From contig JAXGQJ010000007.1 of assembly GCA_040766505.1 (NCBI GenBank), positions 21,232 to 85,231 on the forward strand: a stretch of 64,000 nt of DNA, given 5' to 3'. The stretch is from Clostridiales bacterium. GTDB taxonomy: Bacteria > Bacillota > Dehalobacteriia > UBA7702. The position numbers and the translations under genes are program-made. Below the pieces are notes generated by a model. That model had not been told where the DNA came from and did no database searches. It worked only from the letters and a program-made list of their open reading frames with translations. How positions within the stretch are numbered: position 1 is the stretch's first letter; every line of letters starts with the position of its first letter. Below, piece by piece: positions 10,762 to 53,423 of the stretch.

Positions 10762-11032
10762 AATGCCAAGAACCGCAAGCCCAAGCGCCCGCGGCGCTAT
10801 AGATTGGGATGCTTGAAAGCGGGGTTCGGCCCCCTTTCAGACGATCCCTGCTGTACAATAAACAGTTTGATTTTATTTCGATGTAATGGTCGCCGATTCT
10901 TTCTAAAAACATTTTATCTAAGATATAAATTCGCCCAGGGCGACTTTGTCTACACTTTGGTATCAAGATCTTCTTGGGGCTTTTTTACATGGCGGCTGCC
11001 AGCCATACAAAGGAGGCCAGCGATGAAGGAAA

Positions 11033-22828: not shown

Positions 22829-23574
22829 GAGGGAATGGCCGCATGGCCATTCCCTCAGATATATAAAATTCAAGTCATTCTGTAGACAAACTCCCTGCGC
22901 AGCGACCTTGGACGATCCGCAAAAGGATTTTGGGAAAGATCGGTAACCGTTACATGGAACGTGGCGTCGAAAAATTTATTGTGTAGCAGGGGATCGTCTG
23001 AAAGGGGGCCAGGCCCCGCTTTCAGGTATCTCAATTTATAGCGCCGTAGGCGCGTCAGCTTGTAGACTTTGTCTACAAGCGAGGGAATGGCCGTATGGCC
23101 ATTCCCTCAAACTGAAGAAAAACTCCCTGCGCAGCGACCTTGGACGATCCGCAAAAGGATTTTGGGAAAGATCGGTAACCGTTACATGGAACGTGGCGTC
23201 GAAAAACTTATTGTGTAGCAGGGGATCGTCTGAAAGGGGGCCAGGCCCCGCTTTCAGGTATCTCAATTTATAGCGCCGTAGGCGCGTCAGCTTCTTGACT
23301 TTGTCTACAGTCTGAGGGAATGGCCGCATGGCCATTCCCTCAAACTGTAGACAAACTCCCTGCGCAGCGACCTTGGACGATCCGCAAAAGGATTTTGGGA
23401 AGGATCGGTAACCGTTACATGGAACGTGGCGCCGAAAAACTTATTGTGTAGCAGGGGATAGTCTGAAAGGGGGCCAGGCCCCGCTTTCAGGTATCTCAAT
23501 TTATAGCGCCGTAGGCGCGTCAGCTTGTAGACTTTGTCTACAAGCTGAGGGAATGGCCGCATGGCCATTCCCTT
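22829..23574. repeat. tandem array of 3 near-identical ~232-bp non-coding units with 4 copies of a 28-nt perfect palindrome
   Basis: 170-nt cores at 22891-23060, 23123-23292 and 23356-23525 differ at only a few positions. The palindrome GAGGGAATGGCC-GCAT/GTAT-GGCCATTCCCTC lies at 22829-22856, 23081-23108, 23314-23341 and 23547-23574. A TGTAGAC-TTT-GTCTACA motif sits next to it. Confidence 0.9.
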
Positions 23575-29899: not shown

Positions 29900-29928
29900 C
29901 CCCGGAGCGCCGATAAGGCGCACATAGC

Positions 29929-30135
29929 GTCGTTGTAGCCGAGGGGCCGGATCCTCACATACCCCAAGTATGGTTCGGCCCCGGCCCCCCGACTGCGCCT
30001 AGCTCTGCACACCTTCTCGGCGCTCCGGTTCCAGGTTTCCGATAGACGCCCGGCGGCGTCATTGTCAGCAAAGGCCGAGGCCCCATGTACGTCCAAAAGT
30101 ACGCATCGGGCCCCGGCCTTTGGCTTGCGCCTAGC
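29929..30135. repeat. two copies of the long-hairpin repeat family (locus A)
   Basis: A1 spans 29929-30004 and A2 spans 30035-30135. Each has CGTC(G/A)TTG, a 60-70-nt imperfect hairpin with a GGCCGG...CCGGCC core, and GCGCCTAGC. They lie between the convergent ilvC and tauE-like genes. Confidence 0.8.
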
Positions 30136-30328
30136 TCCCGAGCGCTTCTCATAACCCCGGGAGGTTGTACGGTTTGCGGGTTGGCGGCGGGTACTTTTTG
30201 CGGTTTCAATGCTTTGCGGCCCCGCCGGGTTGGGGCGGGGCCGCAAAGATTGTAAGGATATCGAAGGGGCCGGCGGCGGTTCCGGGCTTGGGGGCGGGAA
30301 TCGCCGCCGCTGGCAAATAGCGGTGGGA

Positions 30329-50370: not shown

Positions 50371-50465
50371 AGTGATTGAATCGATTATAGGGATACGAAG
50401 CGCACCGGCCCTTGGCGATCCGCCCCTTTTGGCGCCGCCCACCTAAACGGGAGGAGACGAAACGC

Positions 50466-52919
50466 GTGGAACAGTATATTTTACCCCTTGAAGATATTAA
50501 AATCCGCCACCAGGTGGAATTCGGCAGCAAGGCGGCGAACCTCGGCGTCATCGCCCGGGAGATGACGACCCCCCGGGGTTTCGCCATTTCCTCTAAAGTG
50601 TATATCGAGGCGCTGAACGCCAACTGCCTACAGCAGGAAATTACCGCGATGGCCCGAGAGGTGGAGGACAAGCCGATCCAGCAGATCGAACCGGTGGCGG
50701 CGGCGATCGCCGCCAAGATCACCGGGCTGGAGCTTTCCCCTAAGCTGGAAGCGATGCTGCGCGACGCTTATGAGAAAACCTGGCCCAAGGACAAGCCGGC
50801 GGTGGCGGTGCGTTCCTCCGCCACCGCCGAAGATTTGCCATCCGCCTCCTTTGCCGGCCAATTGGAGAGCTTCCTCCACATCGAAGGGGCCGGGGCCTAT
50901 CTGGAGGCGGTGAAGGAGTGCTGGGCTTCGCTCTGGACGCCCCGGGCCATCCACTACCGGCGCCAAAAGGGCATCGGCCAGAAGAACATCGCCATGGCCG
51001 TCATCGTCCAGGAGATGGTGGCGGCGTCGGCGGCGGGGGTGATGTTCACCGCCAATCCCGTCACCAATTCCCGGCAGGAGATCTATATCGAGGCCGTTCG
51101 CGGTCTCGGGGATCGCCTGGTTTTGGGGGAAACCAATGCCGATGTCTATCTGGTTCGGAAGGAGCGGCTTTCACCTCTTCCTGCGGCTGGAAGAGGAACG
51201 GTCTCTGCTGACGGAATACCAGCTGAAGGTATTGGCCGCCGCCGGAAAAAGCTGGAATTCCTTTACGATCAAGAGCAGGACGTGGAGTGGGCGCTGTGTC
51301 AGGGGGAAATCTATATCCTGCAAACCCGCCCCATCACCACCCTGGATGAGGAGGATATGCCGCTGCCGGATCCCGCCGAGATGACCGAAATCCAGCGGGA
51401 AGTCTGGATCAATGTCAACGAGCGTTTTCCCGACCCGGTGCTGCCCATCGACGGCATCATCGCCAAGATATACTATCAAAGCCTGTTTTCCGCGTATAAA
51501 AGCCTGGATTTCCAGGTGCCCTATGTGGATTGGAAACGGGTGGAAGAGGGGTTTTTCCCGGAATATTTCCAGCCCCCGGCCATTACACGGCGGCCCTGGC
51601 GCAGGGTGAAGCTGCGGAATGTCGACCGGCTCGACATCGAAAAGGAATGGCGGGACAATGAAAATGCCTTCAACCGCTATCTCGCTTTGCTGCAAAACCC
51701 CGATTTGCCCGGCTATCCGCTGGAAACGGTGATGGAATACCTGGAAGATGCCTTGAAGGACTTTCAGCGGGCGCTGTATCTGCGCTATCTTCTTTATATC
51801 CGCTATAATATGAAATACAATGCCCTCGTCGCCGCTGTGGAGAAGAAATTTGGCCAAGAGGGCAGAACGGCGCTGGACAGCGCCATCGCTGGCGAACCCC
51901 AGATCACGATGGAACTGAACGACGCATTGCGCCGCCTCGCCATTGAAGCGGGAGAGGATCCGCACCTCGCCAAAATCCTCCTCGGCGGCGACCTGCTCCG
52001 AATCGAAGAGGTGTTTCGGGAAAGCCTGGGGGATCACCCGTTCCTCGGCCGCTACCACGCTTTTATGGCGAAATATGGCGACCGGGAAATCAGCCAGGGC
52101 CTGGGGGGCCTCGCCGCCGCCCTTTGGCGGGACGAGCCGGCGGTGGTTTGGGGCATGATTCGCGGCCTGCTCAAAGCCGATACGGCCGGAACGGCGCCGG
52201 AAAAGGAACCGGCCCGGGAAGCGATCCGGCAACGCCTCAAGCAGGATCGCCGTTTGGCGGCGAAAATTCGGGACGCCCGGCGCTACAATGCCTTCCGAGA
52301 AAACAGCCATTTCTATCTCACCCGGGCGATGACGGTCTTTTCCTCCCTCTTCCTGCAAATTGGCGACCGGCTGGAAAAGAAAGGCCTGTTGGACGACGGC
52401 AAAGACATCGTCTATTTCACCTATTTTGAAATCAAAGACATCATTTTCAATCTCCATAGCATGCAGAAGATCAGCCGTTTGGAGCTGGCGGAAACCATTG
52501 CCGACCGGAAGGCCCGGCAGAAGCGGCGGGAACGGCGCTGGTTGAGCCGGAAATCCGGGGATCGGCTCAGCTATGGCGATGTGATCCGGGGTGTGGCGGC
52601 TTCCGGCGGCCTGGTGCAAGGCCCCTGCCGGATCATCAAGAGCCCCCAGGAATTCCACCGGCTGGAGCCCGGCGATATCATGGTGGCGGAATATACAAAT
52701 CCTTCCTGGACGCCGGTGTTCTCCTTCATCGGCGGCCTGGTGGTGGAATATGGCAGCGCCGTTTCCCACGCGGCGATCATCGCCAGGGAATACGGCATCC
52801 CCGCCGTTTTCGGCATCGACGGCATCGTCGGGACTTTGGTGGACGGGGAAGAGGTGATCATAGATGGGAGCCGCGGCATCATCCACCGCACCCCCAGGCT
52901 TCCGATAGATACCCGATAA
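50466..52919 (+). CDS. PEP-utilising enzyme with rifampicin-phosphotransferase-like three-domain layout; compensating frameshifts near 51150-51250
   Basis: GTG after GGGAGGAG. N-terminal PPDK_N/ATP-grasp (FGSKAANLG...VAVRSSATAEDLPSASFAGQ...WASLWTPRAIHYR), a long helical middle, and a C-terminal swivel domain (...NPSWTPVFSFIGGLVVEYGSAVSHAAIIAREYGIPAV). Confidence 0.8.
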   Translation: MEQYILPLEDIKIRHQVEFGSKAANLGVIAREMTTPRGFAISSKVYIEALNANCLQQEITAMAREVEDKPIQQIEPVAAAIAAKITGLELSPKLEAMLRDAYEKTWPKDKPAVAVRSSATAEDLPSASFAGQLESFLHIEGAGAYLEAVKECWASLWTPRAIHYRRQKGIGQKNIAMAVIVQEMVAASAAGVMFTANPVTNSRQEIYIEAVRGLGDRLVLGETNADVYLVRKERLSPLPAAGRGTVSADGIPAEGIGRRRKKLEFLYDQEQDVEWALCQGEIYILQTRPITTLDEEDMPLPDPAEMTEIQREVWINVNERFPDPVLPIDGIIAKIYYQSLFSAYKSLDFQVPYVDWKRVEEGFFPEYFQPPAITRRPWRRVKLRNVDRLDIEKEWRDNENAFNRYLALLQNPDLPGYPLETVMEYLEDALKDFQRALYLRYLLYIRYNMKYNALVAAVEKKFGQEGRTALDSAIAGEPQITMELNDALRRLAIEAGEDPHLAKILLGGDLLRIEEVFRESLGDHPFLGRYHAFMAKYGDREISQGLGGLAAALWRDEPAVVWGMIRGLLKADTAGTAPEKEPAREAIRQRLKQDRRLAAKIRDARRYNAFRENSHFYLTRAMTVFSSLFLQIGDRLEKKGLLDDGKDIVYFTYFEIKDIIFNLHSMQKISRLELAETIADRKARQKRRERRWLSRKSGDRLSYGDVIRGVAASGGLVQGPCRIIKSPQEFHRLEPGDIMVAEYTNPSWTPVFSFIGGLVVEYGSAVSHAAIIAREYGIPAVFGIDGIVGTLVDGEEVIIDGSRGIIHRTPRLPIDTR

Positions 52920-53237
52920 CGTCGTTGTCACCACAGGGCCGGATCCTCACATACCTGTAAGTATTGTTCGGCCCCGGCCCTGTGGTTCCGCCTAGCTCTC
53001 GGGCATCTCTCGAAAGCCTGCCCGGGCTTCGCCTCGCGGCTGATCGCGTCGTTGCGGCCAAGGGGCCGGATCCTCACATACCTGTAAGTATTGTTCGGCC
53101 CCGGCCCCTTGGCCGCGCCTAGCGCTAAGCCGCGATGCTGTGCCTGCCAGGCTTCCGATAGATACCCGATAACGTCGTTGTCACCAAAAGGCCAGACCCT
53201 CATGTACGTCTGAGCACACGTCGGGACTGGCGCTAGG
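52895..53237. repeat. three copies of the long-hairpin repeat family (locus B)
   Basis: B1 spans 52895-52996, B2 spans 53047-53123, and B3 spans 53148-53237 (truncated). A 39-nt exact direct repeat, CAGGCTTCCGATAGATACCCGATAACGTCGTTGTCACCA, occurs at 52895-52933 and 53148-53186. Confidence 0.85.
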
Positions 53238-53423
53238 GGTGTTTTTCCGGCTTGGGGTATATGGGATAATAAAAAGGTCGGGCTTTGTGTGCGTCTGCGG
53301 AGACATGAAGCCGGCCTTTTGATCGTAATGGCGCGATTGCGCGTTTTGAAACAGAGATTGCGGGTGGAGGGCGGATATCTTTATCTGGGGCAGCGTTTTG
53401 GGATGGTGGCGGGGTTTTATCGT

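Follow-up and report, generated by a model that had tools for sequence, protein, structure and literature searches.

We conclude that the hairpin repeats in the 64-kb stretch of DNA analysed here (the window) are very probably copies of a non-autonomous MITE, moved in trans by a hairpin-targeting DDE transposase of the IS1182 clade, whose termini are CAGACTGTAGACAAA...TTTGTCTACAATCTG; we put the probability of this reading at roughly 0.8. The repeats are small elements with terminal inverted repeats (TIRs) and target duplications, they are dispersed and variable in copy number, and a cognate IS with matching ends is found in a genome of the same family (G006). The link to the IS1182 clade is made by termini that agree at 12-14 of 15 positions and by duplication of the whole target hairpin, which was seen in 38 of 44 copies of the IS and in 13 of 26 copies of the MITE in a genome of the same genus (G001). 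The window corresponds to C44:21232-85231 of its own assembly (G000), which comprises 1.94 Mb in 46 contigs with 55% G+C and is 75% complete.

The original prediction placed five copies, A1, A2, B1, B2, and B3, in the window, and all five were found at those positions, with genuine CGTC(G/A)TTG and CGCCTAG motifs. The predicted hairpin is real, but it had been drawn too short: when eight copies were aligned with their flanks, conservation continued for about 25 nt on each side, and the true unit is an imperfect palindrome of about 127 bp, from here on referred to as M1. What had been read as single-stranded flanks is an internal loop within this longer hairpin, beyond which a further outer stem of about 25 bp pairs (e.g. 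CAGGCTTCCGATAGATACCCGATAGC with GCTCTCGGGCATCTCTCGGAAGCCTG). In this outer stem, CAGGCT(G/T)CCGA.A.A...CCGATAGC pairs with GCTCT.GG....TCTCGAAGCCTG. Inward of it lie an asymmetric internal loop that is conserved, a middle stem that varies, and an apical hairpin that is again conserved. GATAGC/GCTCTA and GTCGTTGC/GCGCCTAGC make up the conserved mismatches and internal loop, and the T4 of the consensus pairs with A4. Further, M1 (127 bp; 126-128 bp in G001) is joined to a tail of 28-48 bp, and the two are found together as a unit in several genera. The element runs from CAGGCTGCCGACAAA... to ...TTTGTCTACA, with the 5' CAGGCTGCCGACAAA complementary to the 3' arm and the tail ending in TTTGTCTACA-N-CTG, so that terminal inverted repeats are present. 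In G001 the tail of subfamily X reads CCATCTTGTCGACTTTGTCGACAATCTGA and that of subfamily Y TTGTTTTGTGAGAAAACGAGGGTTTTTCGACAATCTGA; in the window's own assembly the tail is TCAGCCTGTAGCCCAAAGCCGCC-N4-GGCGGCTTTGTCTACACTCCGG. The element has no coding frame of its own, its sole ORFs being chance frames across the repeats. The M1 copies of the window are tail-less and lie in head-to-tail arrays; together with the near-full-length palindrome, its conserved internal loop, and the separate tail module, these arrays are what is distinctive of the element.

Both loci lie, as predicted, at the 3' ends of genes, which encode KARI (ilvC) and a PPDK_N/PEP-utilizers protein. A1 (29901..30027, plus strand; 98 bits and E 1e-19 with the covariance model CM R1, and placed by alignment) starts 2 nt past the ilvC stop codon, and its outer arms, GATAAGGCGCACATAGC and GCTCTGCACACCTTCTC, are similar to those of a subfamily found in another genome (G004). 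A2 (30030..30158, plus strand; CM R1 88.3 bits), of the 'TAGACGCCCG' subfamily, follows A1 head-to-tail. At the second locus, B1 (52893..53019; CM R1 112.5 bits), B2 (53021..53146; 117.3 bits), and B3 (53146..53273; 38.2 bits, E 7e-5) all lie on the plus strand. When folded singly, A1, A2, B1, and B2 gave z scores of -3.4, -3.3, -5.7, and -6.6 against dinucleotide shuffles, and B3 folded no better than the shuffles (z -0.14); B3 is a truncated and decayed copy, in which the first 40 nt are the same as the start of B1, the inner hairpin has diverged, and the 3' arm is gone. B2 and B1 share an identical apical stretch of 45 nt (B1 52937-52981, B2 53064-53108), and the lower stem has changed on both sides with complementarity kept. 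We note that the 40 nt shared by B1 (52894-52933) and B3 (53147-53186) include the last codons and TAA of the upstream gene, that the lower stem of B1 is unlike that of both B2 and B3, with changes that are complementary, and that B1 looks chimeric. This suggests, from the sequences of the array, a recent gene conversion or unequal exchange or, as another possible origin, duplication of M1 as a 'target hairpin'. Next to A1 and A2, a GC-rich hairpin, CTTTGCGGCCCCGCC-GGGTT-GGGGCGGGGCCGCAAAG (30212..30248, no strand assigned), was read from the sequence between ilvC (plus strand) and a TauE-family gene (minus strand). It is likely to be a resident bidirectional terminator; it went undetected in a simple terminator scan, and no second copy of it survives across A1 and A2.

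The PEP-utilising enzyme gene (50412-52919) takes its last eight codons (PRLPIDTR) and its TAA stop from the 5' arm of B1. The PEP-utilizers domain of the window protein ends at residue 822 of 835, the alignment with the G001 orthologue stops at query residue 231 of 239, and the site 3' of the gene is empty of the element in G001. From these comparisons, B1 has replaced the native C-terminal tail and stop of the enzyme. We also observed that the G001 orthologue (G001:C4:2479-6159) is disrupted by frame shifts and stops, which may reflect an assembly error or a pseudogene, and that, in the C-terminal part that could be matched, it shares just 54% identity with the window protein even though both genomes are placed in one genus.

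The family extends well beyond the window. A genome-wide search of G000 with the strict pattern CGTC[GA]TTG-N40-100-CGCCTAG returned eight copies on contigs C2, C4, C36, and C44, so that M1 is not confined to the window, and an iterated nhmmer search returned 47 non-overlapping copies. With CM R1, which was built on a hand-drawn structure, 60 matches were obtained at E <= 0.01; some of these are palindromes matched a second time on the opposite strand, which leaves about 50 distinct copies on at least 25 contigs and upholds the earlier view that the repeats did not arise by one segmental or recent local duplication. Across the class, distribution is patchy, with copies in the genomes of 11 of 74 species and none in most relatives. 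The same-genus genome G001 (66% complete) has at least 66 matches; within the same family, G004 has 12, G007 has 7, G003 has 6, G013 has 5, G006 has 2, and six other genomes have 0; and 3 and 8 matches (the latter in a stricter search) were obtained in G034 and G057, respectively, each from another family. The copies in G001 form two subfamilies of near-identical sequence, X and Y, a sign of recent bursts of amplification. Between pairs of G000 copies, 37% of stem columns differ, and M1 is old and decayed in that genome. The G000 copies are intergenic, and the spacers that hold them are convergent in 19 cases, co-directional in 26, and divergent in 1, as judged by crude gene calls from a home-made codon-usage caller that covers 67% of the genome; this excess of convergent and co-directional spacers, with copies in either orientation, fits the targeting of terminators. 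At C46:63228-63600, a copy of M1 and a copy of a second, approximately 207-bp repeat family share one hairpin (AGGGAGGCGCAACCGCGCCTCCCT), and different repeat families are here stacked at one terminator.

The manner of insertion is best seen in the young copies of G001. These are laid out as a locus-specific terminator-like hairpin, one or two T, M1, a 28-36-bp tail, and the same hairpin again, and in the majority of fully read copies a T-run comes after this right-hand hairpin. The direct duplication of the locus-specific hairpin that brackets 13 of the 26 copies is 17-29 bp long, and its length tracks the size of the hairpin. At two loci (L135 and L140), the copies form stacks of the type hairpin-X-hairpin-Y-hairpin. 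In G000, a recognisable flanking duplication was detected in just 3 of 34 copies, compared with 1 of 34 when the flanks were mismatched as a control, and flanking hairpin duplications were seen in none of the five window copies, which we infer to be old insertions whose duplications have eroded. In one G001 copy (G001:C49:32947-33272), the two flanking target hairpins share a stem, but the loop of one (TTTTAGA) is the reverse complement of the other's (TCTAAAA), a flip/flop-like inversion of the duplicated hairpin.

The same footprint is left by an autonomous element with related ends. G006 contains four copies of a 1,602-bp element with the ends CAGCCTGTAGACAAAG...TTTTGTCTACAAGCTG (the right end also given as ...TTTGTCTACAAGCTG), the ORF of which scored 447 bits on the NF033551 IS1182 profile (cut-off 270) and contains the domains DUF772, DDE_Tnp_1, and DDE_Tnp_1_6. 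At three sites, it is flanked by duplications of a whole hairpin (25, 28, and about 36 bp), and at a site without a hairpin by a 6-bp duplication (TATTAC). We collected 80 loci with relatives of the G006 transposase across Bacillota, which yielded 44 distinct copies with both ends and with transposases 50-100% identical. The duplications in the 38 copies mentioned above are exact, measure 19-33 bp (median of all 44, 24 bp), abut both ends, and all fold as hairpins of 7-13 base pairs; a T-run follows the right-hand hairpin copy in 32 of the 44. Direct repeats of up to tens of base pairs are given for the IS1182 family in ISfinder, and Siguier in 2015 reportedly noted palindromic targets for it. 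We also observed that 32 of the 44 copies are co-oriented with the terminated gene (transposase on the plus strand), the upstream hairpin copy being stripped of its T-run, an arrangement in which transcription that reads through might extend into the transposase gene. In one G006 copy (G006:C3; L180 1480-3069), the transposase frame is stop-less within the IS and passes the right end (2936) into the duplicated hairpin and past it, giving 529 aa; the TnSha1 transposase is likewise reported to read through the end of its element.

The termini of the element were compared with those of the IS clade by visual inspection of the first 15 nt in consensus sequences, with CAGACTGTAGACAAA as the left end and CAGATTGTAGACAAA, the reverse complement of the clade's right end, as the right. 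The 5' end of M1 in G000 matched at 12 of 15 positions, the 5' end of G001-X at 13 of 15, and the 3' end (tail) of G001-X at 14 of 15, and the TGTAGACAAA core of the G000 tail matched exactly (10 of 10). Further, the 207-bp family, which is non-coding and of which three copies are stacked between copies of one hairpin at 22829..23574 (plus strand; read from the sequence), has the same termini as the M1 element (CTGTAGACAAAC ... CAGCTTGTAGACTTTGTCTACAAGCTGA, with TTTGTCTACAAGCTG at the 3' end) and carries the TGTAGACAAA core exactly, as found both in a genome-wide scan for TTTGTCTACA and in the comparison with the IS termini. Their ends suggest that the two families were probably mobilised by the same enzyme, and the common termini make both of them MITEs of one IS clade. 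Solo modules of 40-50 bp, of the form TIR-short hairpin-TIR (...GCGACTTTGTCTACAC...) and without an adjoining M1, occur in the window at about 10915-10965 (C44:32176) and elsewhere in the genome at C18:6136, C45:20247, C21:13788, and C8:14111; these look like minimal MITEs of the same clade.

M1's own ends, at just 12-13 of 15, agree less well with the IS consensus than the tail does, which limits the reading of M1 as a MITE and means that a smaller element could be carrying M1 as its cargo. The mobile unit would then be the 40-50-bp tail with its TIR-hairpin-TIR structure, and M1 a host hairpin or an earlier-inserted one that was targeted and carried along or duplicated. The solo tail-like modules at C18:6136, C45:20247, and C21:13788 are consistent with such a unit, as are the tail-less tandem arrays of M1 in the window, and because hairpins of any sequence are targeted, a 127-bp palindrome would be a plausible landing pad. 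We nevertheless regard this as unlikely: M1's own ends are TIR-like, the duplicated hairpins of G001 enclose M1 and the tail as one unit, and the combination recurs in several genera.

With regard to the source of the transposase in genomes that carry the repeat, a search with the NF033551 profile detected no IS1182-type transposase in G000, G001, G004, or G007, and a tblastn search of G000 with the G006 transposase returned no match. This implies that mobilisation in these genomes was historical or was carried out by an IS that is unassembled or lost, the assemblies being incomplete (75% for G000 and 66% for G001). Weak matches of G001 to the IS1182 model were traced to an IS5-family (IS5_4) element with the unrelated ends GGGCACCTCTAAAAAC, which was rejected as a partner. 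An intact IS5-family element of G001 (G001:C50; L189 1040-2300; NF033581, 269 bits), with the ends GGGCA(T/C)CTCTAAAAAC, is unrelated to the repeats. No larger element bracketed by split left and right halves of M1 was found in G000, and integration of the Cas1/casposase or IS1202 type, considered as a source of the long duplications, was set aside after an IS1182 partner whose termini are identical had come to light.

The compensatory change between the arms that had first drawn attention to the repeats was upheld. In 91 aligned rows from eight genomes (86 distinct copies and five opposite-strand matches), 83.0% of cells were paired compared with 65.4% in shuffles, with 0 of 500 shuffles reaching the observed value, and two-sided changes numbered 768 compared with 259 and occurred at all 47 pairs; these counts ignore phylogeny and come from a CM alignment fitted to the hand-drawn structure, which had replaced a plain MAFFT alignment on which RNAalifold gave a poor structure. 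When the partners were slid by 1-3 columns, pairing fell to 26-42%. Within G000 alone, two-sided differences reached 1.5-fold the expectation under independence with 80% of cells paired, a pattern that fits subfamilies born palindromic and then decaying. We infer that complementarity has been kept in this way, with either mild constraint or arm-to-arm correction accompanying the decay, and not through a function as RNA.

Strong covariation in the stems would equally be expected if M1 were a structured cis-acting RNA, a 3'-UTR stabiliser or terminator module selected as RNA and dispersed through duplication. The stability of the hairpins speaks for this, as do the location of copies at the 3' ends of genes, the A4/T4 border of the inner stem in 34 of 39 G000 copies, and the lower divergence of G000 copies in stems than in unpaired columns (0.37 versus 0.49). 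Against it, Rfam 15 at E <= 10 returned nothing above 21 bits on the element and no meaningful overlap with M1; in co-directional spacers, copies are sense to the flanking gene in 12 cases and antisense in 14, which is no bias under the crude gene calls; and G.U pairs (213) are not in excess of A.C mismatches (252), so that neither strand looks RNA-selected. A GC-rich stem-loop followed by a U-run, as an intrinsic terminator has, is not what the window copies present: the T-run is missing in A1, B1, and B2, and a simple terminator scan returned nothing in either locus. Copy number varies wildly, from 0 to 66 between close relatives, and the target duplications that flank young copies are a hallmark of DNA insertion. 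We consider the structured RNA that the original prediction had offered as one of its two readings very unlikely. By RNAfold energy, 21 of 27 copies fold better on the opposite strand, and the mismatches on the tallied strand are mostly pyrimidine-pyrimidine, which may explain the greater average stability of the opposite-strand folds.

The other reading, a REP-like element, holds in part: the repeats do form a dispersed palindromic family in which the hairpin is kept while the arms change, but at 127 bp and with no Y1/RAYT enzyme they are not REPs in the strict sense. If they were REP- or REPIN-like, a RAYT (a Y1 enzyme like that of IS200/IS605) would recognise the hairpin in single-stranded DNA, and the conserved mismatches and internal loop would suit a protein that binds the folded strand; the copies are also palindromic, intergenic, numerous, and clustered in tandem. 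The RAYT/IS200-IS605-type tnpA that this implies was not detected, as PF01797 (Y1_Tnp) had no match in G000, G001, G003, G004, G007, G013, or G034 and matched instead in several relatives free of the element. A REP unit measures 20-40 bp, and M1 is three to five times that length. To our knowledge, Y1 elements leave no target duplications, whereas hairpin-length duplications are present here. Taken together, these points make movement by a RAYT extremely improbable, more so than the RNA reading.

For the element and its IS relatives alike, insertion takes place at the foot of a stem-loop of any sequence, mostly where the stem gives way to the T-run, and leaves the entire stem-loop duplicated. 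For the MITE moved by an IS1182-clade transposase, we propose the following scheme. The full element would consist of M1, both ends of which would be inverted copies of the IS1182-type terminal repeat, and of the short 3' tail, which would end in a second copy of that repeat (...TTTGTCTACA-N-CTG). Judging from the shared termini, a transposase of the IS1182 clade would move the elements in trans and would choose its target by the shape of the DNA, presumably an extruded cruciform or hairpin and typically an intrinsic terminator. The element would be joined at the feet of the stem-loop, between the stem and the T-run, by a DDE transposase whose strand transfers, normally made with a short stagger (6 bp where there is no hairpin), would here straddle the foot of the extruded cruciform, and reabsorption and repair would then yield a duplication that spans the whole hairpin, with one copy on each side. 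Such a route over the cruciform base corresponds to pathway b of the IS1272 model by Wan et al. 2017 (PMC5678879). A DDE transposase that acts on the terminal repeats alone leaves the self-complementarity of the full 127 bp unexplained. It is conceivable, and we offer this tentatively, that the transposase reads DNA shape at the donor as well, in which case the MITE would move best with its ends joined at the foot of an extrudable cruciform, the conserved loop and mismatches would be protein contacts, and the palindromes would serve as landing pads for later insertions. If true, this would explain the head-to-tail arrays A1-A2 and B1-B2-B3 and, through arm-to-arm correction, the rapid two-sided changes in the arms.

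Several known systems resemble the element in part. Like M1, the repeats ERIC/IRU (127 bp), Correia/NEMIS, RUP, BOX, and SPRITE are imperfect palindromes of about 100-200 bp that are intergenic, often lie near gene ends, vary in copy number among relatives, and can provide stop codons or terminator-like hairpins (PMC10969869, PMC3184786); M1 has no sequence relation to them and differs in host phylum and mobilising family, and duplication of a whole target hairpin is described for none of them in a review of such repeats. REP/REPIN-RAYT systems share with M1 clustered extragenic palindromes with conserved unpaired bases, but M1 has no RAYT, a much longer unit, and target duplications. IS1182-derived MITEs are already on record, and M1 is ordinary selfish DNA rather than a new RNA: MITEPye1 of Paracoccus yeei is likewise small, ORF-less, and intergenic, forms a stable hairpin, has TIRs that match an IS1182-family IS, and presumably depends on a transposase supplied in trans (PMC11578231). 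In MITEPye1, from an alphaproteobacterium, the direct repeats are 4 bp long and each chromosome has 1-3 copies (PMC11578231), whereas the M1 element, from Bacillota, has hairpin-length duplications, 50 to at least 66 copies, and a near-full palindrome with a separate tail. For annotation, this means that about 50 intergenic hairpins in G000, and many more in relatives, are best labelled as remnants of mobile elements and not as sRNAs or riboswitch-like RNAs; lying as they do between terminator stems and T-runs, the elements may affect how transcription terminates or reads through at many operons.

The closest parallel is with IS1272 and TnSha1 of staphylococci, which also encode an IS1182-family DDE transposase, target stem-loops, many of them confirmed terminators, irrespective of primary sequence, and insert at the base of the hairpin (PMC4923244, PMC5678879); the M1 element differs from them in having no transposase gene. 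In our search of the literature for whole-hairpin duplication by IS1182 members, only IS1272/TnSha1, where the hairpin is deleted, and MITEPye1 were retrieved. IS1272 and TnSha1 delete or replace the stem-loop without a target duplication, and hairpin deletion alone was observed for them (Furi 2016, PMC4923244), with whole-hairpin duplication drawn for IS1272 as a hypothetical pathway only (PMC5678879). In the elements studied here, in contrast, the whole hairpin is duplicated. Overall, our data add, for the IS1182 clade and its MITEs, a well-replicated case of shape-directed insertion in which the length of the duplication is that of the target hairpin.
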